Shown: piece by piece, positions 3,763-35,491 of the stretch
Layout of the letters: every line of letters begins with the position of its first letter
Numbering within the stretch: the first letter of the stretch is position 1
From: a virus
Taxonomy: Duplodnaviria; Heunggongvirae; Uroviricota; Caudoviricetes
Virus record (IMG/VR): IMGVR_UViG_2671180778_000014
Coordinates: 1-35,491 of that record
Direction: 5' to 3' (one strand)
DNA length: 35,491 bases
The notes under the pieces: model-generated
What the model was told of the DNA's origin: nothing
Database searches by the model: none
Seen by the model: the letters and a program-made list of their open reading frames with translations, nothing else
Program-made: the position numbers and the translations under genes

Positions 3763-3797
3763 AGTAGTGAATCCTCAATAAAATAATATTCACTACT
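3763..3797. promoter_or_regulatory. perfect 10-bp inverted repeat in the 5' leader of the endonuclease gene
   Basis: AGTAGTGAAT ... ATTCACTACT separated by 15 nt, directly upstream of the start at 3762. Confidence 0.3.
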
Positions 3798-3804
3798 ATT
3801 TATA
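3798..3804 (-). promoter_or_regulatory. candidate -10 element (TATAAAT) of a recurring promoter motif
   Basis: minus-strand CTTATAAATA upstream of the gene at 3762; the same motif recurs at 29978 and 30966. Confidence 0.3.
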
Positions 3805-3808
3805 AGAA

Positions 3809-4165
3809 TTAATTATTGTAGTTTTGGAAACCAGTAAGATCGCAAAATGTTTCTGTGTCATGTACCGGAGAACGATGTTCTGCCTCGTCAGAGAAAATGT
3901 TGGCTACCGGAGATTCTGCGTTAACTTCCGGTACTTCTTCAACTACTGGCTGAACTTCTTCAATGACTGGTTCCACTACCGGAGTTTCTTCTACTGGTTC
4001 CGGTTCTTTCATTGCTTCAACCAGTGACGGATCTGCCTCATCAAATACCACTTTATCTTCTGCGGTATATTTGTCTATAATGAAAAAATGGTCAGAAATA
4101 TAGCTAACGTCGCCAGCATATTCTAACAAAAAAGCGCCCACCAGAGGCGCTTTTGTTTTATCCAT
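3809..4165 (-). CDS. hypothetical Pro/Glu-rich protein (uncertain start)
   Basis: ORF with EPEPVEETPVVEPVIEEVQPVVEEVPEV low-complexity segment; 5' end overlaps a terminator hairpin, so the true start and reality are uncertain. Confidence 0.3.
   Translation of the reverse strand: MDKTKAPLVGAFLLEYAGDVSYISDHFFIIDKYTAEDKVVFDEADPSLVEAMKEPEPVEETPVVEPVIEEVQPVVEEVPEVNAESPVANIFSDEAEHRSPVHDTETFCDLTGFQNYNN
4130..4157 (-). terminator. rho-independent terminator after the endolysin gene
   Basis: minus-strand AGCGCC-tctggtg-GGCGCT followed by TTTTTTGTT. Confidence 0.5.
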
Positions 4166-4511
4166 TCCACCGTGATTTTTTTGATCTGGAATCAATATGC
4201 GTAAAGGTTTTATATTTTCCTAAGCCGTATTGAGTAGGATATTTCCCATCAAGATAAGCATGAACAATATCAGGCGAGACACCCTTGATAACAATGTCAG
4301 CCGCGCGGCCTCGAACATGATAGCTATTGGTTGCGCCGCCTACATTCTTGTTATGAGTCGGGCAACGGTTCCCACTGTTAATAATCACTGGTTTACCGAA
4401 GTGCTCTCGTACATCCTCAAGAATCACCAGTAATTCAGCGTCGATTGTATCATAATCACATTTTCCGCATTTACATTTAAATTCCTTGCGAGAAAAATGC
4501 TTACTTAACAT
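4158..4511 (-). CDS. endolysin, zinc peptidase M15-like (YcbK/DUF882-type)
   Basis: FSRKEFKCKCGKC ... NSGNRCPTHNKNVGGATNSYHVRGRAADI ... THID matches the His/Asp zinc-binding pattern of M15-type cell-wall peptidases; RBS AAGGGGG. Confidence 0.65.
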   Translation of the reverse strand: MLSKHFSRKEFKCKCGKCDYDTIDAELLVILEDVREHFGKPVIINSGNRCPTHNKNVGGATNSYHVRGRAADIVIKGVSPDIVHAYLDGKYPTQYGLGKYKTFTHIDSRSKKSRWNG

Positions 4512-4520
4512 ATTACCCCC

Positions 4521-4868
4521 TTAGATCATTTCGAAGATATAACCAATAAAGCGCATACCCTTGATATAATAAGGAGCAGTGCCTACACACACCGCGCGTG
4601 CATCACCCAGACAGTTAAAGCTATAAGGATTAACTACATCGACTTCTTGCCCTACACGAAAACGATATTTAGGACGTTTAGCCAATGTAGCGACACAAAA
4701 CACGGTCCCCTTTTCATGGTCACGGATACATTCTTTATATTGTTTATGTTTAACTCTCTTCGCCTCAAAATCATAGGTCATTGATTCTGGGCTAATGCCA
4801 TTAATAAAAATACCGGAAAGCTGATCAACCGGATAAGTAGGAAATTCAGTGAAAATATTTTTAGCCAT
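4521..4868 (-). CDS. hypothetical protein
   Basis: 115-codon ORF with GGGGG RBS; no recognisable motif. Confidence 0.5.
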   Translation of the reverse strand: MAKNIFTEFPTYPVDQLSGIFINGISPESMTYDFEAKRVKHKQYKECIRDHEKGTVFCVATLAKRPKYRFRVGQEVDVVNPYSFNCLGDARAVCVGTAPYYIKGMRFIGYIFEMI

Positions 4869-4906
4869 GTTATACCCCCATAAGATTCTATGAGGGTATT
4901 TATTGA

Positions 4907-5590
4907 TTAAACGTATTTCATGCGCGATTTAATGTGCTTATTGATGTTTTCAAGCATCATTGCTTCGTTGCTTTCCCACGATCCTAGCGTCGAATAACGA
5001 GTAGAAATTTTATCCGACTTAACGGCAACAATTCGCTTACTCTGTTTCTGTATGCGTTTCTCTAAGCGACGTTTTGCCACCGCAGATCCATTCCTAGCGC
5101 GTTTGGTTCGGGATTTCTTAGGCTTGTACTTCTTCATGATAAAAGTCCCTTCCTGGTTCTCTACCTTGATGAAGTTGCCATTTTCGATGTTACGCATCAT
5201 CTTACCGCCTTTGATGGCCTTAATGTTCCCGTGGGAGTCTAAGACCTTACCGTTGGCGATTGGCACTAGCTTATTGATTTTGCCACCATCGAAATAGTGT
5301 TTCAGATAGTCATCCTGACTGCCGATCCTCTTGTCCTTATCCCTTGCGCCCTTGATGAAGATTTGGTGTCTCGTCCCTGATCGGTTCTTGTAGTTGGTAT
5401 TACCTACAGCTTGCTGAGTCCATCGAGTAGGTCTATCAACATTCTTGTTAATCTTCTTCTGGAGTGCTCTGGAAGCAAAGATCGCCCCTTCCCCTAGTGC
5501 CCTTTCGAATGTATCGGTTGCCTTTTCAGACCATTGCCGTAACGCTTTCTTAGTCCTTAGAGCGTTTCGTTTATTGGTACTGGTTGCCAT
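4907..5590 (-). CDS. hypothetical basic protein
   Basis: 227-aa ORF rich in Lys/Arg; start ATG overlaps the stop of the upstream small gene (TAACATG). Confidence 0.5.
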   Translation of the reverse strand: MATSTNKRNALRTKKALRQWSEKATDTFERALGEGAIFASRALQKKINKNVDRPTRWTQQAVGNTNYKNRSGTRHQIFIKGARDKDKRIGSQDDYLKHYFDGGKINKLVPIANGKVLDSHGNIKAIKGGKMMRNIENGNFIKVENQEGTFIMKKYKPKKSRTKRARNGSAVAKRRLEKRIQKQSKRIVAVKSDKISTRYSTLGSWESNEAMMLENINKHIKSRMKYV

Positions 5591-5591
5591 G

Positions 5592-5762
5592 TTAGCCCCC
5601 TAATAACGAAAAGACCCCCGCCAGTGTCCTTAGCAATTGTTCATCCACGGTCATAGCCGGGAGTTCAAGCCCAAAGGACGTTAGCAGAGGTCTAATAGCT
5701 ACGTTATAAGTGAGGGCGACAATCAAGAGATAACCAAAATATTTCTTAAGTTTATTCTTCAT
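5592..5762 (-). CDS. small membrane protein (56 aa), possible holin-like
   Basis: RBS AAAGGGGTG then ATG; MKNKLKKYFGYLLIVALTYNVAIRPLL has a hydrophobic helix; translationally coupled to the downstream gene. Confidence 0.35.
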   Translation of the reverse strand: MKNKLKKYFGYLLIVALTYNVAIRPLLTSFGLELPAMTVDEQLLRTLAGVFSLLGG

Positions 5763-5780
5763 ATATTCACCCCTTTATTA

Positions 5781-6059
5781 TTATTTTTGTTTGAGTATGT
5801 CGAGAACTTGGTCAAATTTGGCGTCCATCGCAACCACTTTCTTCTCTATACCGTGTAGTGTTTGTTCCATTTGGTAAACACGTTCAGCAATCTGAGTATG
5901 GTTATTCTGCATCGTCTCAAACTTCTGGTTTAACAATGCGTCGCTGGATTCCAATTTCGACAATCTATTTTCAGTTGCTAATTGATTTCGGTGAAGTCTC
6001 CAAAGACCACCACAAATTAAGGCGATAACACCGATACCGCCATATATAATTTCAGTCAT
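5781..6059 (-). CDS. membrane-anchored coiled-coil protein (spanin- or holin-like)
   Basis: N-terminal hydrophobic segment IIYGGIGVIALICGGLW followed by a heptad-rich region; GGGGG RBS. Confidence 0.45.
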   Translation of the reverse strand: MTEIIYGGIGVIALICGGLWRLHRNQLATENRLSKLESSDALLNQKFETMQNNHTQIAERVYQMEQTLHGIEKKVVAMDAKFDQVLDILKQK

Positions 6060-6165: not shown

Positions 6166-9100
6166 TTAAGAAACAGTAATACCCGTAGTGGCTTTTTTAG
6201 TTACCATTACAGTTAAATCACTGATCCATGTGCTAGGCGTCCAGTTGTTGATTGCGCTTGATTGCACTTCAAAGGTCAAGGTCACAGCACCTTTACCCGC
6301 TGGCATATCAATAACACCTGAGTAAAGACCAGTATTACCGCCATACGCCCTATTATACAACTCTGACCCATTCTTACGAACAATCAGGCGACATGTGTCG
6401 TAATAGGTATTATTGTTCGACCCTTCACGCGCTCGCAATCCACCAAAACTAATTGCCGGAATAACGATTTGACGATCGAACTTGTGATCATCTTCAACGC
6501 GAACAGTGACCGTACCCTGTGGATAGCCAGCATAACCATTATCAACGTTAACATCACGGTGCGGGAACTTACGACCAATCACCTTAACGAAATCACCCTT
6601 AACCTGAGTAGCTTCAAGCATACCCTTAATAACACAGCTAGAGTTAATCGTGACGTTGTTCAGAGTACCAGAATCAGCCGTGATATTACCTTTAACGGTA
6701 GCGTTCATGAACGTAGCATTACCGTTCTTGTTGATATGCCATCCGGTCGATCCGTTCCAGTTGGAAGACTGGATATAGTTACCGATTTTAGCGTTATCAA
6801 TTGCGCCATTTACAATCTTGGCGTTAGTGATTGCCCCGTCCTGAATCTTCGCGCTGTTAATTGCAGCATTGCCGATCTTAGCGGTAGTAATTGCCGCATC
6901 ATTAATCTGGGCTGTACCAATTGCAGCATTACGAATCATCGCATTATCGAGATAAACCTTGTTACCTTCGATACCAAACGGGCAAACATCGGTCCCATTC
7001 TGCGGAGCTACAGCAATTTTATCAGCCGTAAAGATGATTTTAGTCGGTTGTGCCGGATCGTTGGTTGCGCTCATGTGAATACCAGCCACACGACCATCTG
7101 CATTAACTGCCAGATTGTATTTGCTGTTAATGGTTCCTTTCAAAGCATCGATTTTTACATCTGCTTCCTGATTCACACCAGCAATCTTGCCATCCATTTC
7201 TACCCGAACTTGATCAATCTTACTTGCGCTTGCTGCCTCACTGGTTGCAATTGCTTGTTTCAGGGTTGTAGCGGAGGCGCTAACTTCTTTGGTGATATCG
7301 CCTTTCAGTTCAGCTTTAACCTGATCAATCTTAGTTGAACTTGCCTTATCACCAGAAGCAATCAGACTCTTTAAGGTATCGGCTGAGGCTTGAACAGTTT
7401 TACCCGTCTCGGTAGTGATTTGCTTATGCATTGCATCAATTTTAGCATCGGCATTAGCGCCAGCTTGCTTAATAGCATCCGCGATAGTTTCATCTAAGCG
7501 ATCTTGTAAACCGATCAGGTCTTCCAGTGCTTCTTTGTCCTGATCGTCCCAACTAATCGTAGACTTCATTTGCATGAAATACGGTTCAGACCAAACAGCA
7601 TCATCCATACCGAAAATATCGTAGTGAGCACCACGGATATAATAATCACCGTCAGCAATATCAAAGGAAGTATGGCTAACACTATTCGTGCTTACTGCCC
7701 TTGCATCTGAGAAAGTGTTATCGGTTGCATACTGGATGATTGACCCTGCATAGTCATGTTCTACGTCATCCGCCCAGCTAACAAACGCAGTATTAAAGCC
7801 ACCACGCGCACTAAAACCTTTCATTGGCTTATGCTGTGGGTTGATAGCCACTAAACGCGCTGGGGCGCTCTCTGAGTTGTTATAGCCCTTAGCCGATACT
7901 TCTACCGTAAGTTGTCGCGAAAGGCCGTTAAACTGGTTCATATCAAGTGTATAAGTCCATGATTCAGGATCGCGGGTACGGTACTGAATAGACTTACCAG
8001 CCTTGTTAGTCACCTTGATAATGTATGCTTCAAACAGGTCACTAAACTTGTTAGTTTCACCGTTGATCATCACATCTAATTGTTGCTGATTTTCCCATTC
8101 GATAATCAGATCATTACCTTCGAAAGTTCCTGGCGTGCTACCCTGATTTTTGATTCGAATAACCGGAGTCGGTAATTCATAGGTAACAGTAGGATTCTGG
8201 TTAATCAGTTCTACCCAATCAGATCTCGCGATGATACCGAAAGCACAAACTCGGTAATCATAAGAACGATCTTTTGCCAGTGCACTGACACTGAAAATTT
8301 GCTGTGAAGTCTGTCCCAGCTTAATCCAGTTAGGCGATCCACTAACACGGTAATCAATCTGGAAGCCGTAGCGGTTAAAATCTTCCGGCGCATCCCATGT
8401 TAAAGTAACGTTCTTACCATAGATTGTTTCACCAGTTGCCTTAATTCTGAAATTAGTAGGCTTCTGTACTGTCATTGAATCCGGTAAACCACTTGGTCGG
8501 TTATCTGGGTTAGCCGCATAGTTCAGGTCAGTATAAACCTGAGAATTATATTCTGTGGCGGTGATCGTCATCATCCCAGCAATACCAGAATCAATCGAGC
8601 GGTCAATTGCAGTAATACGCCAAAGTGAATTATTCAGTTTTAATTCATCATAGGTTACGCTGATAACATCCCACACCTCGGCAGTGAATGCGTCAGTAGT
8701 CATAAAGCTGATAACCTGAGTGATACGAGATTTATTTCGTTCAATGCTCGCAAGTTTATCAATCTGGGCTTTAGACTTAACAAAACGATATTCGATATCC
8801 TTAGCGATAATTCGACCATCTTGACGAATAGTAGCATCGTTTTCAGCATCAGCCGGATAACGTAGCATTTGCTCTGAATAGTCAATAGATGGTTCTTGAT
8901 ACATCGCGTTAATGGTATTGAAATAACCGTTAGTGCCACCTGTTTTCAGTGATACCTTACCCATCATGATATTGTCTTCATTGAAGGTATGCTTAACAAT
9001 ATCAGGAGCATCCAGTTTCAGGGTAATTCTTCCGAAGGATTCGAACATCACCCCGCCGAAAGTCTGCATAAGGCTAGTCAAGTTCTCTTTAAAGCTGGCG

Positions 9101-25613: not shown

Positions 25614-27518
25614 TTAGAACGATGTTACCCAGCTACGGCCTCTATTTGGGCGTCTGGCGATGTTTTTACGTTGTGGTCGTGTGATTGGCTTATTTTCTTC
25701 GATTTGCTCGTCAGATTGCGTTTCAGGAGCTTTTACGGGTTCTTCTGGTTCACGGTTCAAACTATCTTTGATGGCTTCGAGTTTTTCCCATGACATTTTA
25801 TTGAGTACATGGCGAGAAGCAGCATAGGAATAAGCCAGGCAGTCGAGAGCCTCGTTTCGTTGCTGACCAACTTTTACCCAACGTGTGGTATTACCCTGCC
25901 GTTTCAACTGTTCAGAAAGCAATTGCTCGCAATAGTCATCAGGAACGTCACCAATCTGGAAGACAGTGTGAGGATCTCCATCTCTCAAGTTCCGGTTAAT
26001 CATTTCGCGGATCATCGTCTTAAGGTTGTTTACGCCCAGAATTTTAAGGGTAAAACCACCTGTTCTTGTGTCTTTTACCGGAAGGATTGGAGCATCAACA
26101 TTGCTTGCGCCCTTAATGGCTGATAGGTTTTGCCACCGACTACAAAAGCGGTAGATCACTTGCGTAGCACGTCCGTTTGATGAGTCCACGAAAGCGGATA
26201 GCATCGGGATTCGTTGACCGGATCGGGTATAGAATTTAGCTTTCAGGAAGTTGTAAAGCTGGTCATATGCTGGTGATTCGTGGCGTTCGCAGTTCACATC
26301 ATAGAATGATCGGTGATCAACTACGCATATCCCTTTACGCGAGATACCCAGCAAGGTAGATTCCAGACGGTCTTTTTGCTGGTCAACTCCACCTACCAGA
26401 GCCAGAACATCATCAGGGATATTGTCTAAGCTAATATCAGTTTTCAGCGTTTCCAGTTCGTCGGCTGTGCGGTCTTCGTTAAGATCATCGAAGGTTTCAC
26501 CTAAGACAGTGTTATAGAACGTTGCCAGTGACATATTCGCGTAGCTATCAGCAAAATCCACCACACACGCACGGATAGAACTAAACGGAGACATAAGGCG
26601 GTTAGCATGAAAACCGATTACTTCCGCATTAGGTTCGGTGGCGATCCATTCTCCCTTAGCAACAGCACGTAGGCGATCCCCTTCGGTCCAGTCGGTTTCA
26701 CATTCAGGGCAACGATAAACGGCTGTGTCGGGCGAAGGCAGTGATTTACCATTAACTTGATGCCAATCAAAATGGACGTTACTCCATTCCATTACGTGTC
26801 TGTGTCCGCAATGCTGGCATGGAACATAGTATTTTCGTTTATCTGATAGCTCGAATTGTTGGTTGATCGCCCCATCTCGCGACGTTGGAGTAGAAGCAAT
26901 TACGATCCGTGCATCTTCCCCGAAAGTGGTTGCTCGTTGTTCCGCTAGCTGGATCGGGTTCCCTTCATCTGATTCATCAGCCGCATCAACTTCATCAAGA
27001 ATAATCAAAGGCAGTGTCTTACCGCGCAAGTGTGATGGACTGTTCAGCGACATGAAATACATGAATGATCCGTTACGAAGCTGAATAATCGATGAGTTGT
27101 TAACAGCATTACGGTCTGATTTGTCGGTGATCATCGCTTTTAATTCTGGCGTAGCCTCTAATACTGGCTTCACCTTACCAGCGATCCAAGAATTTAGTTC
27201 TCTAACGTTTGATTGCAACACCCCTATATTCGTAGGGTTACTGGCGATCCTGTGGAAGATAATTCCGTTAAGAATCATAGTCTTACCCAACTGCGCCGAA
27301 CATTTAAACACAATTTTTCTACGGTCTTCGGTGATCGCGTCCATCATTCCACGTTGGAAGGGATGCAATTTAATTAGAGATCCGGCTTTAACGCCATCGG
27401 TAGCCACTACGTTAGCCTCTACCCATTCGCTAGGTTTCATGGCTTTAGGCGGTCGAATTGCAGCAGAGATATTTTTAAGAATCTTTTTTAATTTAGCCTT
27501 ATTAGAAATCAGTTTCAT
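25614..27518 (-). CDS. terminase large subunit (lambda gpA family)
   Basis: 634 aa; N-terminal PSEWVEANVV ... LHPFQRGMMDA and C-terminal RNEALDCLAYSYAA match the recalled lambda gpA pattern (AVEWADANYY ... LPFQRAIMNA ... RRNEALDCFVYALAA); Walker A-like QLGKT. Confidence 0.85.
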   Translation of the reverse strand: MKLISNKAKLKKILKNISAAIRPPKAMKPSEWVEANVVATDGVKAGSLIKLHPFQRGMMDAITEDRRKIVFKCSAQLGKTMILNGIIFHRIASNPTNIGVLQSNVRELNSWIAGKVKPVLEATPELKAMITDKSDRNAVNNSSIIQLRNGSFMYFMSLNSPSHLRGKTLPLIILDEVDAADESDEGNPIQLAEQRATTFGEDARIVIASTPTSRDGAINQQFELSDKRKYYVPCQHCGHRHVMEWSNVHFDWHQVNGKSLPSPDTAVYRCPECETDWTEGDRLRAVAKGEWIATEPNAEVIGFHANRLMSPFSSIRACVVDFADSYANMSLATFYNTVLGETFDDLNEDRTADELETLKTDISLDNIPDDVLALVGGVDQQKDRLESTLLGISRKGICVVDHRSFYDVNCERHESPAYDQLYNFLKAKFYTRSGQRIPMLSAFVDSSNGRATQVIYRFCSRWQNLSAIKGASNVDAPILPVKDTRTGGFTLKILGVNNLKTMIREMINRNLRDGDPHTVFQIGDVPDDYCEQLLSEQLKRQGNTTRWVKVGQQRNEALDCLAYSYAASRHVLNKMSWEKLEAIKDSLNREPEEPVKAPETQSDEQIEENKPITRPQRKNIARRPNRGRSWVTSF

Positions 27519-27605: not shown

Positions 27606-28211
27606 ATGCTAATTAATCAGCAACAAAGAGATGTATTAGAATTAGCCTTTTCTTGTTGTACCGATCATGAATATCGTTTGCCAGTTAAGCACCATCACAA
27701 GAAGACTGATTACACAACATCCGGCTTTAGTCGCGAGGAAGCTAAACAGATTTTAATCGAGTTGTATCGTGATCATGGGTATACCGATATTCATAACTTC
27801 TTTAAGAAGCACCGAACATCACAGACAGAGTTTAATAGAGTCCGTGAATGGTTTGATTTTGACATTAAGCGATTCTATCGAGTGGATGACGGTCCAATCT
27901 ATCGGTTGCAGTGGACACCGATTAGGGAAGTGCTTAAACAGAAGAGATTGAATCATGCCATTACACGCTATCGTAACGTGGCTTTTAAGAAAGGCTATGG
28001 TGATACAAGGGAACTATTCGTTGAACTCGCTAACGTGCGATATAGCCACTATTACAGGAATCCTAAAGAGTTCTTCGAAGTGCTGCGCAAGGTTGATATA
28101 AGTCGGGGTACATACTATTCACGGTTGAAGAAGTACGGGATTAAGGCAGAGTTCTTTATGTCGGTTGACGATGGAGAACTTTTTCCGATAAAATGTAAGT
28201 CCTCTAAATAA
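27606..28211 (+). CDS. hypothetical DNA-binding protein with C-terminal HTH
   Basis: 201 aa; C-terminal FEVLRKVDISRGTYYSRLKKYGI is HTH-like; RBS AAGGGGG; divergent from the terminase gene. Confidence 0.5.
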   Translation: MLINQQQRDVLELAFSCCTDHEYRLPVKHHHKKTDYTTSGFSREEAKQILIELYRDHGYTDIHNFFKKHRTSQTEFNRVREWFDFDIKRFYRVDDGPIYRLQWTPIREVLKQKRLNHAITRYRNVAFKKGYGDTRELFVELANVRYSHYYRNPKEFFEVLRKVDISRGTYYSRLKKYGIKAEFFMSVDDGELFPIKCKSSK

Positions 28212-28239: not shown

Positions 28240-28473
28240 ATGACTATGACTACTAAAGCTACTCGCGGTCGCCCTGCCCGTTTTAACGCTGAACAGATGG
28301 CTGATATTGCCTACGCTTACTATACAGCGGATCGCGGGAAGGAAGCGAAAGAACAGATTCTTAGTGAACATGGGATCTCAATCGCCCAATTCTATAAGAA
28401 TATGAAGAAGTTAGACATTAAATTCTATGTTCAGATCGGTGATGGTCAGATCGTAGAAGCAACAGGTTTTTGA
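28240..28473 (+). CDS. small HTH protein resembling a terminase small-subunit N-terminal DNA-binding domain
   Basis: 77 aa; TRGRPARFNAEQMADIAYAYY ... GISIAQFYKNMKK fits the GRPxK(F/Y) + HTH pattern of some small terminase N-termini (Sf6 gp1-like as recalled). Confidence 0.5.
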   Translation: MTMTTKATRGRPARFNAEQMADIAYAYYTADRGKEAKEQILSEHGISIAQFYKNMKKLDIKFYVQIGDGQIVEATGF

Positions 28474-30451: not shown

Positions 30452-30919
30452 TTACAGCATATCTAAGCCTTCATCGTAACCGTAGAAGCTATTGTGAGAA
30501 GAAAAACAGATTGGTGCGTAGTCTTCGTCTTCCTCGTCTTCTTCATCTTGTTCTGGGGCTTCCTGAGCGGTTTCTTTGCCGTAGTTAAACATTGCTTCAT
30601 CCAGTTCATAGACAGTAACGAAGCTACCTAAATCAATGTCACCTGACCGGACTTCGAAAGGCAGATCATCACGAACAATAATTGCTGGTAGATTCTGGTA
30701 TTTCAGGCGATCTTCATCGGTGAAGCAGTTAACAACGATGGTAGGACGTTTATTTCTTCCGAAAACATACCATGCACTAGAGAAATGGGATTCATCGGTA
30801 TTGTAAAGGATGTTATAACCACGTTCACGGAACATCTTCATTAACTTGTCATTGTGAAAGCTATCTGCATCCAGACCCAGAAGGATAAAAGGAGTAGTGG
30901 TAGTCATTTTGTGGTTCAT
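30452..30919 (-). CDS. hypothetical acidic protein
   Basis: ATG at 30919 preceded by GAGGA with 8-nt spacer; C-terminal EQDEEDEEDEDY acidic tail. Confidence 0.5.
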   Translation of the reverse strand: MNHKMTTTTPFILLGLDADSFHNDKLMKMFRERGYNILYNTDESHFSSAWYVFGRNKRPTIVVNCFTDEDRLKYQNLPAIIVRDDLPFEVRSGDIDLGSFVTVYELDEAMFNYGKETAQEAPEQDEEDEEDEDYAPICFSSHNSFYGYDEGLDML

Positions 30920-30965
30920 AGTGGTAATCCTCAAAAAGAAAGTTAATCAAAGTAATTCTGATATT

Positions 30966-31224: not shown

Positions 31225-31595
31225 AATCCCTTTCTAAGAAAATCCTTTCAAAAGTGAGTGAACGCCGTAGGCGTGAACGTGAGCGAAGCGAACTATCCAA
31301 TCCCTTTCGAATCCTGCTTGCAGGTCTTAGAAGGTGTTGGTGGGCGCTACGCGCACGGCTACGCCGTATTCTTTTTGCGAGATCTTTCTTGAACGTAGTG
31401 AGAGAAAGCGAGCAAAAAGGAGAACGTTAGTTCGAATTTTATATTCTATGGTCTGTTGGGTATAATCCCTTTCAAGATCATACACTTACGTGATTGAAGT
31501 GTAGGGTTAGTGTAGGTGTGTAGGTTTCATAGTGTAGGTTTGAGAGTGTTATAGTGTAGGTTTACTGGCTAGTGTAGTGTAGGCCAATCCCTTTA
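31225..31595 (+). repeat. dispersed direct repeats of the 10-mer AATCCCTTT(C/A)
   Basis: copies at 31225, 31299, 31464 and 31586, a degenerate copy at 31241, and an inverted copy at 35108-35117. Confidence 0.6.
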
Positions 31596-31617
31596 AAGTG
31601 TAGGTGTGTAGTGTAGG
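31499..31617 (+). repeat. iteron array of the heptamer GTGTAGG (about 10 copies, mostly GTGTAGGTT)
   Basis: copies at 31499, 31510, 31518, 31532, 31554, 31577, 31598, 31611 plus GTGTAGT variants at 31572 and 31606, followed by an AT-rich stretch. Confidence 0.7.
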
Positions 31618-31813
31618 TTTTCTATCAAAAATTTTGACAAAAATTATTGTATATTATTTAACCAAAAAATCACCAAAAAGCGGCGTAAATTCATGATTTA
31701 AAAGAAATTTTCAAAAGATCTCCGTGCCATAATAGGTTATAAAGGTTGATAATCATTATTTGCCATTTTCAAACAAAAATTTTGATACACTTTTCTCGCT
31801 TAGATCATTGGTA

Positions 31814-31842
31814 TTGACAAGTGTCAAGAACTATTTTATACT
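31814..31842 (+). promoter_or_regulatory. consensus sigma70 promoter (TTGACA - 17 nt - TATACT)
   Basis: TTGACA at 31814-31819, 17-nt spacer, TATACT at 31837-31842. Confidence 0.6.
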
Positions 31843-31849
31843 TTTTCTC

Positions 31850-32007
31850 ACTGGTAGGGGTTGAAATTTTCCAAACAATCCACATATAGATGATAAGCAT
31901 GATTTTTTCGTGTATAAATACATGCATGAAAAATGATTGTTCACTTCTGAAAACCTCCTGACTCACTGTTAACTCATACAGCACTGGTTAGATACACAGT
32001 GCTTTTT
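31850..32007 (+). ncRNA. candidate small non-coding RNA (promoter-to-terminator unit)
   Basis: about 160 nt between the consensus promoter and an intrinsic terminator (AGCACTG ... CAGTGCT + TTTTT at 31980-32007); no RBS-supported ORF. Confidence 0.3.
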
Positions 32008-32131
32008 CGGTTGAATATTGTACGGATTGATTAATTATTAATCTTCTCTTTAGCAATTCGTGCTCCCTCTGATCGGATATACAGTGGTTTTACAGAGTTT
32101 TTGAAAATCATTTTTATAAATAGAATTGTTC

Positions 32132-32150
32132 AGAGCGAAAAGCTCTTTTT
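32132..32150 (+). terminator. terminator/attenuator hairpin
   Basis: AGAGC-gaaa-GCTCT followed by TTTTT, 35 nt upstream of the 60-aa gene. Confidence 0.4.
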
Positions 32151-32186
32151 AAAAAAATCATTATTCCAGATTTAGGAGGATTCAAG

Positions 32187-32369
32187 ATGGCACGACCTGT
32201 TAAGTTCACTCGTGAAATCGTTTTAGAAATGGCAAAGCGTTATTTTGAACTGACACCTGATGTAGTGATGGGTGATTGGTTTAAAGGTGAAGGCATTGAT
32301 CAATCAACCTTCCATAAACTTTTAAAGAAGTATGAAATTCGCGTAAAGATTACCGCCGAGGTGTGGTAA
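32187..32369 (+). CDS. small HTH protein (paralog of the 77-aa protein)
   Basis: 60 aa; ARPVKFTREIVLEMAKRY ... GIDQSTFHKLLKKY parallels RGRPARFNAEQMADIAYAYY ... GISIAQFYKNMKK; RBS AGGAGG. Confidence 0.5.
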   Translation: MARPVKFTREIVLEMAKRYFELTPDVVMGDWFKGEGIDQSTFHKLLKKYEIRVKITAEVW

Positions 32370-32413
32370 TAACCTTTGACTGAGAATTATATGATGGCTT
32401 TAAAAATAAAAAA

Positions 32414-32441
32414 GCCTCCCTGTTGGCGCAAGGAGGCTTTT
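32414..32441 (+). terminator. rho-independent terminator
   Basis: GCCTCC-ctgttggcgcaa-GGAGGC followed by TTTT. Confidence 0.5.
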
Positions 32442-32486
32442 GATATGAACAATTAAAACTAACACAGCATTCAGGAGTATTTATAA

Positions 32487-33488
32487 ATGAAAAATTCTAA
32501 GCGCATCACCTTCAACCTGTTCATTAAATCCAACGGCAAACTGAACATTACCGTTATGGAAGGTAAAGCAAGCAAACAAGACAAATCCTTTGAAGTAGTA
32601 TCCGGTAAGACTCTGACCGAAATGCGTCAGAATGCTGGCATCAAAGACGGTGCTGAATGGCAGATCACTAACCGTTTCGACAAACGTCACGTTAAACCTA
32701 CACTGGTAGAAGGTGAATCCGTTTATTGCTTCGCTCGTGCTGTTAAAGCCGATGAAACTTACTATCTCGCTGTTATTAAAACTGCTTCCGGTTTCCGTGC
32801 TGTAATGCATCACAAGAGCAAGCGTAACGAATACGGCGTAGAGACCCAGGAAGTTGCAAAACGCTTCCGTACTGTTGCTACTGAATCCACTGTAAAAGAT
32901 GTTTCTGGTACTGTTAACACCGCTAAAGGCGGTTCCTTCTACAACCACGCATTACAGGTTACTTCCTCCTTCTTCTGCAAAAAAGAAGCACAGAAAGAAG
33001 TTGCTCCGGTAGTAGTTGAAGAAGTTAAAGAAGAAGTAGCAGTGGTTGAATCTTCCGAAGTTGAAGCACTGAAAGCACGCATCGCTGAACTGGAAGCTGA
33101 AAACGCATCTCTGAAAGCTGAACTGGCAGCACAGGAAACCACTTTCGAAGTAGCAGCGGTTGAAGTTGAAGCAGTTGAAGAAAAATCCATTGATGAAGAA
33201 CTGGAAGAACTCCTTAACTATCGCTGGGGTAACGGTGAAGAAGTAGAACAGGAAGAACAGAAAGAAGCTGATCCGGTAGTAGTTCCGGTTGAAGCAGAAT
33301 CCGCACCAGTTACTAACTTTGAATCCCTGCGCAATAACTTTATGGCTAAATTCAAAACCACTTGGGAAGATACCGAAGAAGAACAAGAAGAGATTGATGT
33401 AAACGAAGACGAGATCCGCGAAGCACAGATGGCACTGCATGACGCTATCTATGACACCAACTACAGCGCCTACGCATACGCAGCTTAA
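32487..33488 (+). CDS. acidic coiled-coil protein with host-optimal codon usage (function unknown)
   Basis: 333 aa; N-terminal ~170-aa Lys/Thr-rich domain, then EALKARIAELEAENASLKAELAAQ coiled coil and acidic tail; codons are almost exclusively E. coli high-expression choices (CTG, CGT, GGT, GCT, TCC, AAC, GAA), unlike the rest of the window. Confidence 0.6.
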   Translation: MKNSKRITFNLFIKSNGKLNITVMEGKASKQDKSFEVVSGKTLTEMRQNAGIKDGAEWQITNRFDKRHVKPTLVEGESVYCFARAVKADETYYLAVIKTASGFRAVMHHKSKRNEYGVETQEVAKRFRTVATESTVKDVSGTVNTAKGGSFYNHALQVTSSFFCKKEAQKEVAPVVVEEVKEEVAVVESSEVEALKARIAELEAENASLKAELAAQETTFEVAAVEVEAVEEKSIDEELEELLNYRWGNGEEVEQEEQKEADPVVVPVEAESAPVTNFESLRNNFMAKFKTTWEDTEEEQEEIDVNEDEIREAQMALHDAIYDTNYSAYAYAA

Positions 33489-33503
33489 TAGAGGGGTGAA
33501 TCT

Positions 33504-33746
33504 ATGATGAATCAAAACAAAGAATTTCTGGGTAACTTGATGTTAGAAATTACCAAAATGAAAGAAAGAATGGTAGCGATGGAATCAGAGATTAAAACTC
33601 TTAAAGCTGATAATAAGGCGTTGAGAAAGTCCTTAAAGCTGATTGATGAGACTAATGCTGTTATGATGGATCATGTATTCCCTGAGTGGCGAAATGAAAC
33701 TAAACCTACACAACATAAGAAACCTACACTTCGAATTGTTGCATAA
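33504..33746 (+). CDS. small coiled-coil protein
   Basis: 80 aa; RBS GAGGGGTG; heptad-like KERMVAMESEIKTLKADNKALRKSLKLI. Confidence 0.5.
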   Translation: MMNQNKEFLGNLMLEITKMKERMVAMESEIKTLKADNKALRKSLKLIDETNAVMMDHVFPEWRNETKPTQHKKPTLRIVA

Positions 33747-33768
33747 AAAAGGGACTCCGAAGAGTCCC
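33745..33768 (-). terminator. terminator hairpin (minus-strand orientation, possibly bidirectional)
   Basis: GGGACTC-cgaa-GAGTCCC preceded by AAAAAA on the plus strand, which gives a T-run on the minus strand. Confidence 0.4.
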
Positions 33769-33845
33769 TAGTAAGTTTAGGTTAGGTTTGCACAACAAAG
33801 ATGAGGTTATAATGAACATAATGCTACATTATTCTTTAAAGCCAG

Positions 33846-33871
33846 AAAAATAACCGCCCCCGAAGGGGCGG
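33846..33871 (-). terminator. rho-independent terminator
   Basis: minus-strand CCGCCCC-ttcg-GGGGCGG followed by TTATTTTT. Confidence 0.4.
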
Positions 33872-34454: not shown

Positions 34455-35006
34455 TTACGACACATCAAATTCATCGTCTTCTTCTGGTTCTTGTTCCGGT
34501 TCATCCATTAATGGTAATTCTTCTTCCTCGTCTTCTCCCAAATCTGCATTTTCGAACAAGTCCCCTACTTCATTTAAACGACGCTCGATGATCTCCCTTA
34601 GCTTATTCTTCAATGTTTTCTGGTCAGTGGCAGATTCGAGAATTTCTAAAGCGTCGATTGTGGCGATCTGCAAAATAGTCTGCTTCACTTTTCCGCAATA
34701 TTCCGCTAGTTGCTGTTCTACATACCCGACCGGAATCAGGAGATTCATTGCTTCCTGGTTCTCTCGTTCGGCTGCGTCCGCTAATGCTCTCTCGCGGCGT
34801 AATTTCTCTACGTCAATTTGTTCCTTGACAGTAGTTTCCTTGAGCGGGTTGATGATATTTTTTAATACCCACTCGGTCCCCTCTTTGGCTGGTACGCGTC
34901 GTGTATTGGTATTAAATGGCATTCCTCGTTCTTGCCATTTCTTAGCGGCGTTAATTGTATAGCCGTATAAGCGGGAAATTTCTGTAAGGGTTAATTCTTC
35001 TTTCAT
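34455..35006 (-). CDS. terminase small subunit candidate (lambda Nu1-like winged HTH)
   Basis: ATG at 35006 preceded by GGAGG; LTLTEISRLYGYTINAAKKWQERGMPF parallels the recalled Nu1 N-terminus (QLADIFGASIRTIQNWQEQGMPV); about 180 aa with acidic C-terminus. Confidence 0.45.
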   Translation of the reverse strand: MKEELTLTEISRLYGYTINAAKKWQERGMPFNTNTRRVPAKEGTEWVLKNIINPLKETTVKEQIDVEKLRRERALADAAERENQEAMNLLIPVGYVEQQLAEYCGKVKQTILQIATIDALEILESATDQKTLKNKLREIIERRLNEVGDLFENADLGEDEEEELPLMDEPEQEPEEDDEFDVS

Positions 35007-35491
35007 CCGGTTATCCTCCATTAAATTTGCGTAAAATTATTTATCTGATCTGCGCATTCAGGAGAGCGCCTAAAACGCTTTATAACGAAGGGAAAGATCG
35101 AGGCGGGGAAAGGGATTGGCTGGTGTTAATAGTCGCGTAGCGACCGCGCTGGTGGGCTGCACTGCACCTGTTTTGAAATCTCACACGCACATCAAAAACC
35201 GGGGTGCCGAAAACTCGCTTTATTTCACCCGTGGAACAGTACCTTTTGATTTTGTCAAGTCTTTTTTATAAATAATCGAAAATATTTTTCACACGAGGGC
35301 AAATCATGAATACTAAAGATATTAAGATTGACTTTGAAACTGTTGATGACGTTCGGGAACATCGCATTGATTCTACTGGCTGAATCTTCCAGCTTACTAA
35401 CCCCCCTATTGGATTGATTATCTATGTAGCAGAAGATGACGTGTACGCTATATGGGATGGACAGGATGAGTTTAAAGGCGGGAATAGCCAT

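Follow-up and report, generated by a model that had tools for sequence, protein, structure and literature searches.

Why would a prophage encode a protein of no recognisable family with the codon usage of host ribosomal-protein genes? The question is raised by the open reading frame (ORF) at 32487–33488 (+) of IMG/VR record IMGVR_UViG_2671180778_000014, a stretch of 35.5 kb (35,491 nucleotides) from a tailed phage that we analysed whole and call the window. The window is an Escherichia coli prophage. By comparing sequences, related loci and structure models, we find that this ORF, hereafter the target gene, probably encodes an orphan iteron-binding protein that is very abundant, has an unrecognised fold and belongs to a portable two-gene module. 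More tentatively, we propose that the protein organises a phage replication origin.

Codon selection in the target gene

The target gene starts with an ATG nine bases downstream of AGGAG (32473–32477) and encodes 333 amino acids. The initial annotation likened its codon usage to that of highly expressed host genes. We scored it with a codon adaptation index (CAI) weighted on 30 MG1655 ribosomal-protein, tufA, fusA and rpoA genes, and the likeness held. The target gene reached 0.763 (0.76 in each half), the highest value in the window and close to the host control rplB (0.766); the other host controls were fusA (0.794), tufA (0.838) and the gsp genes (0.23–0.40). The remaining 33 ORFs of the window ranged from 0.29 to 0.64, among them those for the tail tube (0.643), a capsid fusion (0.588) and the flanking 60-amino-acid (0.444) and 80-amino-acid (0.349) proteins. 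Resampling synonymous codons 5,000 times from the phage's own usage gave a mean of 0.499 (s.d. 0.025, maximum 0.592), which places the target gene about 10 s.d. above expectation. Its GC content at third codon positions (GC3), 0.38, equals the phage average, so the bias reflects selection of specific optimal codons (CTG, CGT, GGT, TCC/TCT, ACC/ACT, AAC, TTC, CAG and GAA) rather than a shift in base composition.

On the same scale, the most adapted T7 gene was gp2.5 (0.67), ahead of capsid (0.64), Ocr (0.60) and scaffold (0.56), and the lambda values were 0.54 for E, 0.51 for D, 0.49 for the third-ranked Bet, and 0.35 for both O and cI. On these values the scale follows protein abundance in E. 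coli phages; every T7 and lambda gene tested scored below the target gene. With a near-consensus sigma-70 promoter upstream as well, the earlier suggestion of strong selection for efficient translation, probably with very high output, is upheld, and codon usage makes it very likely that the protein is highly abundant. Two long antisense ORFs overlap the target gene (32481–32948 (−), 155 amino acids; 32952–33515 (−), 187 amino acids); their low-complexity translations mark them as by-products of its codon and amino-acid bias, not genes.

Recent acquisition had been offered as the other explanation of the bias, and here the data point the other way. Diverged alleles at the same prophage position retain high values (A′ (P0241), 0.762; B, 0.72; A″ (P0243), 0.66; C, 0.65; with the type A gene of the window, 0.65–0.76 overall), and in L021 and L022, the two related loci whose neighbouring genes were also scored, the target gene again had the top CAI. 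Synonymous sites of the neighbouring genes are saturated between lineages, with a proportion of synonymous differences (pS) of 0.65–0.93; the target gene has the lowest pS, 0.54. High CAI kept across alleles despite near-saturated synonymous divergence argues for long-term selection. We give almost no credence to the idea that the bias records a recent transfer of a host gene or a compositional artefact, since it survives amino-acid-controlled resampling and persists across these alleles, GC3 matches the phage average and no homologue was found in the host, on plasmids or anywhere outside the phage family.

Co-variation of the N-terminal domain with an iteron array

Upstream of the target gene lie an array of directly repeated sequences (iterons), an AT-rich spacer, a promoter, a leader and a gene for a small helix-turn-helix (HTH) protein (Table 1). 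The iteron sequence AGTGTAGG matches nine positions in the window against 0.62 expected by chance, and seven of these are clustered in the array. We compared 25 related loci, collected by an IMG/VR search with the HTH gene. Type A N-terminal domains (N-domains) accompany six to nine copies of GTGTAGG, with HTH alleles H1, H2 (53% identical to H1) or that of L022. Type B N-domains accompany five to nine copies of TCAGGGGCAAAAAT, with alleles H1 or H1b, and type C about 12 copies of ACGGGGA at an 11-nucleotide phase, with allele H3 (about 90% identical to H1b). The type C locus, L042 (IMGVR_UViG_2778261515_000019, 3785–5815), thus carries a third iteron class. Type A″ (P0243) has a TAGTGCAGGG array and its own HTH allele, and a homologue in a T4-like phage (P0247) a TAGCGATTAC array. 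The type A and type B N-domains are not homologous by hhalign (probability 0.8%), and type C is 25% identical to type A.

Five iteron types therefore track five N-domain types, and do so across HTH alleles. Array and N-domain lie about 870 bp apart, with the shared spacer, promoter, leader and HTH gene between them, and alleles H1, H1b, H2 and H3 reassort with the downstream protein types. Array and N-domain thus remain matched through exchanges of the gene between them, which is most simply explained if the basic N-domain determines iteron specificity. We consider DNA binding by this domain probable, judging from co-variation across four or five independent classes. Binding of the main array by the HTH protein was rejected, because near-identical HTH alleles accompany A, B and C arrays.

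Iteron copies also occur outside the arrays. The type B promoter retains one to three GTGTAGG copies, one of them within the spacer, which may form an operator for the HTH protein, and inverted iteron copies near the promoters of L022 and L004 (the T4-like locus) suggest autoregulation. Three inverted full copies (AGTGTAGGTTT-like) on the minus strand (32697–32704, 33705–33711 and 33723–33730) lie within coding DNA of the cassette, at KPT codons; they are not conserved in L022 and may be due to chance.

Architecture and relatives of the protein

The C-terminal half fits its earlier description as an acidic coiled coil: residues 167–333 hold 48 acidic and 12 basic residues (isoelectric point (pI) 4.05, net charge −36), and the AlphaFold2 (AF2) model places a single long helix with a heptad-like sequence at residues 189–247, followed by a tail of low confidence. 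What that description overlooked is a basic N-terminal half. Residues 1–166 contain 29 lysines and arginines against 16 acidic residues (pI 9.84, net charge +13) and are modelled as nine strands and two helices with a predicted local distance difference test score of about 80–90. The type B N-domain is likewise basic (pI 9.75), and R63, K66, H109, S111 and R113 are invariant in the domain. A model of the domain alone was poorer than the full-length one and was not used.

The protein ends in ...IYDTNYSAYAYAA (also ...ALHDAIYDTNYSAYAYAA), with aromatic residues at the end of the acidic tail. A C-terminal motif, LHDxIYxTNYS...YAA, is conserved and common to type B and P0241, and types A, A″ and C terminate in -AA; such ends resemble the C-terminal tag recognised by ClpXP. 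Length varies from 326 to 343 amino acids through insertions and deletions in the coiled-coil and acidic part, including expansion of a C-terminal YA repeat, as in the 341-amino-acid type A protein of L044 (IMGVR_UViG_2648501730_000022), which ends in ...YAYAYAYAYAYAA. Nonsynonymous divergence (dN) is 0.24–0.66 for the target gene against 0.13–0.42 for TerL, and domains have been swapped.

Profile and structure searches yielded no structural or housekeeping family that would explain this composition. Pfam, PHROGs, NCBIfam, PADLOC and PDB sequences gave no meaningful match, only weak coiled-coil-type Pfam noise. Ocr and ArdA were not matched in Pfam at E ≤ 1, in PADLOC or in NCBIfam; a Rep_3-type fold or sequence had no Pfam match; and neither Phage_rep_O homology, a winged-helix N-domain nor an OB-fold core was found. 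Three fold searches, including Foldseek against PDB and BFVD, recovered no relative of known function; the model showed a weak resemblance to ligand-binding up-and-down barrels. Because the model is based on five sequences, this negative fold result is weak evidence.

An exhaustive phmmer search with the N-domain against 1.84 billion representatives found just three real relatives. Two, P0241 (77% identical in the N-domain) and P0243 (45% identical), come from syntenic prophages; the third, P0247, is a 204-amino-acid protein (30% identical) without the acidic tail, encoded on a 169-kb T4-like contig. Homologues outside the phage family were absent from 5.8 billion clusters and these representatives. 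A profile word-search added nothing, scans of GTDB genomes and of metagenomes uncovered no new lineages, and tblastn with types A and B found no relative on 72,556 plasmids. The literature on the protein accession, the prophage and similar cassettes held nothing relevant.

A related module in a T4-like phage

The gene for P0247 lies in an insertion in L004 (ERZ27275844 k141_85342), between gp3 and a homologue of RB49p130 that precedes gp2. The insertion contains TAGCGATTAC repeats adjoining a TTGACA promoter of early type, a gene for a 64-amino-acid HTH protein, a hairpin and the P0247 gene. This HTH protein is 47% identical to the 60-amino-acid protein of the window, the first 12 residues being identical, and the basic N-domain is the sole part that the target protein shares with P0247. 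The presence of the same iteron, promoter, HTH and protein unit in a temperate siphophage and in a T4-like myophage implies that it is mobile between them.

At 7188–7745 of L004 the insertion also carries GC-rich hairpins beside the TAGCGATTAC repeats, an inverted copy of which abuts the −35 element of the cassette promoter. The P0247 gene has a CAI of only 0.38 on the E. coli scale. We rejected an 80-amino-acid gene after the homologue as a third cassette gene, since it is the resident RB49p130 homologue. T4 oriE with repEA and repEB was rejected as a precedent: the rep genes are antisense ORFs of 45–50 amino acids inside gene 5 and are unrelated.

The cassette within its prophage family

Relatives of the prophage, 80–95% identical and chromosomal, occur in 64 of 5,426 complete E. 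coli genomes. The flanks of the cassette are found in 63 of these 64. Eighteen carry the type A gene, and in the others the spacing between the two matching flanks fits a gene of type B size, an occupancy checked directly in three annotated loci. The slot thus appears to be filled in 63 of 64 genomes by alternative alleles of one architecture, rather than to vary by presence and absence.

The complete element, 37.3 kb in strain PRO_A-1412, is flanked by two halves of hicB (NZ_CM136169.1, 176.5–213.9 kb); in other strains the insertion site is ycdX. It encodes lysis genes and, on the minus strand, a complete siphovirus set (TerL, portal, capsid fusion, tail tube, tape measure and tail fibres). 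Profiles from Pfam, PHROGs and NCBIfam detected no initiator, helicase loader, repressor or recombinase besides the integrase, and no replisome part or single-stranded-DNA-binding protein (SSB) gene was recognisable. Between 27.6 and 34.4 kb, the region holds two Rha-type proteins and otherwise small orphan ORFs. No temperate phage can do without an origin and an immunity system, yet a gene for neither is recognisable here, so we read the module as one such core function.

Candidate functions

Although it remains more tentative than DNA binding itself, the role that we favour for the target protein is that of a type-specific, iteron-binding organiser of the replication origin, possibly acting in initiation. 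The module would consist of the iteron array, the AT-rich spacer, a strong promoter, a small HTH regulator and a highly translated DNA-binding protein. Recognition of the cognate iterons, some 0.9 kb upstream, would fall to the basic N-domain. The coiled coil would give dimers or higher oligomers and allow cooperative binding of 7–12 sites, at a phase of about 11 bp, in one nucleoprotein complex, and the acidic tail, which ends in a short aromatic motif, would recruit a partner or mask the DNA-binding domain. Such a complex would mark and open the origin, for which the spacer is a candidate unwinding region. The tail might recruit host factors in a 37-kb prophage that lacks replisome parts, and a T4-like phage with its own replisome would need no tail.

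Consistent with this role, the iterons are unidirectional and roughly helically phased, and are followed by a spacer of 22% GC that is conserved between types. N-domain and iteron co-variation, together with a slot that appears to be filled in nearly all members, points to a sequence-specific DNA-binding core function. The logic would be that of lambda O, whose variable N-domain likewise co-varies with direct-repeat iterons beside an AT-rich stretch. In both systems transcription is nearby and a core function exists in alternative specificity types; types A and B, moreover, share a C-terminal end motif. Unlike O, the target protein has no sequence or fold relation to that family, no Phage_rep_O match and no P-like partner gene, its iterons lie upstream and not inside the gene, its CAI is 0.76 against 0.35, and it carries a long coiled coil and a polyacidic tail. 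Rep proteins of iteron plasmids (pSC101 RepA, R6K pi and pPS10 RepA) also have a phased direct-repeat array adjoining their gene; the target protein differs in lacking a Rep_3 or winged-helix signature, a plasmid relative and DnaA boxes, and in its far higher expected abundance. In abundance it would stand nearer to phi29 p6. This protein and SPO1 TF1 are very abundant phage proteins that assemble with phage DNA into multimeric nucleoprotein complexes and that turn on replication or switch transcription. Both are small, with little or modest sequence specificity, whereas the target protein has 333 residues, a coiled coil and cognate iterons, and no homology to either.

Several observations weigh against an origin organiser. 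Known initiators such as lambda O are weakly codon-adapted, and an initiator role alone leaves a bias of ribosomal level unexplained; a high flux of an unstable protein (a speculation from the -AA ends) or an architectural role like that of phi29 p6 is possible. Searches near the iterons turned up neither a DnaA-box nor an IHF consensus, and since none of the plasmids searched carries a relative, the family does not serve as a plasmid Rep. The target gene shares its strand with the integrase and runs opposite to the lytic genes, an orientation that could point to expression in the lysogen. Finally, linkage could partly explain the co-variation, which comprises only four or five independent specificity classes.

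Expression in the lysogen is central to an alternative that we regard as unlikely, in which the protein is a type-specific immunity repressor or silencer, with the N-domain on the repeats, the coiled coil serving oligomerisation or looping, the -AA tail providing turnover, and types A, B and C forming heteroimmune groups. The gene is divergent from the Rha/early-left operon as well as opposite all lytic genes, no other repressor is recognisable in the prophage, specificity swaps between otherwise similar prophages are typical of immunity modules, continuous expression would make codon selection efficient, and the -AA end recurs in three protein types. The Mu repressor is built of a DNA-binding domain, a leucine zipper and a ClpXP-sensitive tail; by analogy, the target protein would share this order of DNA-binding region, oligomerisation region and tail possibly governing turnover, and Mu too has many repeated sites between divergent operons. 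Yet there is no homology, and the expected repeated operators over divergent early promoters were not seen in types A and C. In these types about 200 bp separate the array from the rightward promoter, which lies downstream of it. On the leftward side the array falls outside the conserved segment by the early operon, at a distance of more than 240 bp from the conserved region where the leftward early promoter must lie. Such distances from both promoters do not make an operator layout. Known repressors are weakly codon-adapted (lambda cI, 0.35), far from the extreme adaptation seen here, and the module also occurs in a lytic T4-like phage. A replication element would make sense in both temperate and T4-like lifestyles; a lysogeny repressor would not.

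The initial annotation proposed an abundant early host-takeover or anti-defence effector, for example a DNA mimic or sponge, and this has so far gained no support; we rate it as slightly less likely still. Here the mimic or decoy would be the acidic coiled-coil tail, or the sponge the barrel-like N-domain, and the HTH protein would be an Aca-type brake on a very strong promoter. The CAI, above that of Ocr, falls in the class of stoichiometric phage proteins; the tail combines a net charge of −36 with a long helix; the fold weakly resembles ligand-binding barrels; the protein evolves fast and swaps domains; and the portable unit, which brings its own promoter and terminators, occurs in a temperate siphophage as well as in a T4-like myophage. 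T7 Ocr, ArdA and T7 gp5.9 share the very acidic helical region, the high-expression signature and the mobile, accessory-like setting, but these proteins are acidic throughout, without a basic domain or cis repeats; the tail of the target protein may, taken alone, still be a mimic of DNA. No known defence or anti-defence family or fold was matched. The acidic tail is missing from the T4-like homologue, so that the conserved core is the basic domain; the co-variation with iterons is left unexplained; and across almost the whole family the slot seems to exchange alleles of a single architecture instead of being present or absent. Compared with Aca-controlled operons, a small HTH gene is present and reassorts with its cargo, and the type B promoter has its one to three GTGTAGG copies, but the cargo architecture stays constant and the large array follows the cargo, not the HTH gene.

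Two further roles were considered. A DNA-coating SSB-like or annealing protein, as T7 gp2.5 or T4 gp32, is very unlikely. In its favour are the CAI rankings, in which gp2.5 leads the T7 genes and Bet comes third in lambda, the lack of any recognisable recombination or SSB gene in the prophage, and a similar charge layout, with a basic core and an acidic, aromatic-ended tail that would recruit partners; no OB-fold core was recognised. An assembly or structural protein of the virion (scaffold, decoration or internal) is more improbable again. Such a role would account for the high output and for the acidic coiled coil; phage scaffolds are acidic and helical, and capsid, scaffold and decoration genes lead the T7 and lambda CAI rankings. 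The target gene, however, is not part of the structural operon: it is encoded on the other strand, at 9 kb from the capsid gene, and follows a sigma-70 promoter and an HTH gene. Moreover, a protease region is already fused to the capsid gene, the T4-like phage with the homologue has its own scaffold, and iteron co-variation would be unaccounted for. The layout also recalls the partition systems ParR–parC, TubR–tubC and pSK1 Par, with about 10 phased direct repeats upstream, a small DNA-binding protein first in the operon and a coiled-coil partner; here there is no NTPase partner, the array follows the large protein and not the small HTH protein, and an element that integrates by a serine recombinase needs no partition.

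Other features of the cassette and prophage

Equivalents of the cassette promoter were read in L002, L004, L021 and L022. The spacer before it contains the stretch tied for the lowest GC content in the window (22% at 31621–31720); the spacer is common to type A and type C loci, and its repeat motif (Table 1) also occurs in L042. Three conserved hairpins lie between promoter and target gene, their sequences varying across alleles while pairing is kept; the stem of the second leader hairpin, for example, differs in sequence yet pairs in L002, L021 and L022. The stem-loop ahead of the target gene is a terminator on the minus strand and could on the plus strand serve as a partial terminator or a 5′/3′ stabiliser. 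The leader palindrome, which all prophage alleles retain in one or two copies per locus despite differing flanks (L002, about 3770 and 3841; L021, about 7474 and 7553; L022, about 7558), is likely to be a regulator binding site. A 21-nucleotide inverted repeat, 86% complementary, connects the leader (31901–31921, TATAAATAC) with the start-codon region of the target gene (32477–32497, GTATTTATA). L002, L021 and L022 retain the two motifs, which could provide long-range translational control or simply be two AT-rich signals. An Rfam scan of the leader gave no match. Expression of the cassette is clearly regulated. Type B loci lack the third gene, whereas its counterpart in the type C locus L042 encodes 333 amino acids and ends in PTLRLVA, much as the 80-amino-acid protein of the window ends in PTLRIVA.

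Table 1. Positions in the window of the cassette features, the parts of the target protein and selected prophage genes
Feature	Position	Strand	Remarks
Iteron array	31498–31617	+	7 exact AGTGTAGG (8 GTGTAGG); single orientation; mostly spaced at multiples of ~11 bp
AT-rich spacer, iterons to promoter	31618–31810		Inverted repeat TATCAAAAATTTTG / CAAAAATTTTGATA
Sigma-70-type promoter	31814–31842	+	TTGACA-17-TATACT; 11/12 positions
Leader hairpin, then T run	31980–32008	+	Terminator-like; −11 kcal/mol, z −3.4; also in L022; ~140 nt past promoter
Leader motif CTCTTTAGCAATTCGTGCT (CTTTAGCAATTCGTGCT)	32046–32064	+	Palindrome TAGCA-N5-TGCT; read in window, L002, L021, L022
Second leader hairpin + T run	32132–32151	+	−6.7 kcal/mol; directly 5′ of ribosome-binding site of HTH gene
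60-aa Hin/Psq-like HTH protein	32187–32369	+	MARPVKFTRE...; first cassette gene
Stem-loop between HTH gene and target gene	32410–32441	+	−17.8 kcal/mol, z −4.6; kept in four prophage alleles
N-terminal basic β-rich domain, aa 1–166	32487–32984	+	AF2 model, charge
Long helix/coiled coil, aa 189–247	33051–33227	+	AF2 model
Acidic low-confidence tail + stop codon	33228–33488	+	Charge, end motif
Third gene, 80-aa coiled-coil protein	33504–33746	+	Ends PTLRIVA; variable
Two GC-rich hairpins with T runs	33750–33769 and 33854–33871	−	Terminators closing cassette against convergent TerS operon
Large serine recombinase (integrase)	996–2690	+
Tail tube	15515–15988	−
Protease–capsid fusion, 667 aa	21476–23479	−
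TerL	25614–27518	−
TerS	34455–35021	−

The capsid ORF, whose CAI is the third highest among the 34 scored ORFs, matches both major-head and head-plus-protease PHROGs and is on that ground assigned as a fusion. Polyacidic C-terminal tails also occur on a 160-amino-acid early ORF (30452–30934 (−), EQDEEDEEDEDY...) and on TerS (EDEEEELPLMDEPEQEPEEDDEFDVS), so that acidic C-termini are a recurring trait in this phage. The HTH protein of the cassette is one of three paralogous small Hin/Psq-like modules (G/A-RP-x-K/R-F ... KKY/KKL), the others being at 28240–28473 (+) and in the C-terminal part of 27606–28211 (+). They matched no known family and may form a regulatory circuit of the phage. Some members of the prophage family have a GIY-YIG nuclease at the right end. 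Among 50,697 phage genomes, a near-identity search with the locus gave no match and no cultured phage similar to the prophage emerged; tblastn of the target protein, the HTH protein and the T4-like homologue against phage genomes was likewise negative.

Implications

Of complete E. coli genomes, about 1% carry the prophage family studied here, no part of whose early region has been annotated. Searches through billions of proteins found no relative of known function for the family's gene under the strongest codon selection, nor did any fold match it, and the extreme codon adaptation predicts that its product is among the more abundant proteins of cells expressing it. The two-gene module looks like a core function of this uncharacterised family. 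As an immunity or anti-defence factor, the protein would stand out for its abundance. If it is an initiator, the module would be a new type of origin and would explain how a 37-kb prophage family without a known replication gene replicates. A bolder version, which we put forward as doubtful, is a new class of phage replication-origin or origin-based superinfection-immunity proteins, with a new β-rich DNA-binding fold, output at the level of ribosomal proteins, type-specific iterons and a polyacidic, ClpXP-tagged tail, possibly mimicking DNA or SSB, that would capture the host replisome. Were this so, the cassette would be a portable two-gene origin module that moves between temperate and T4-like phages.

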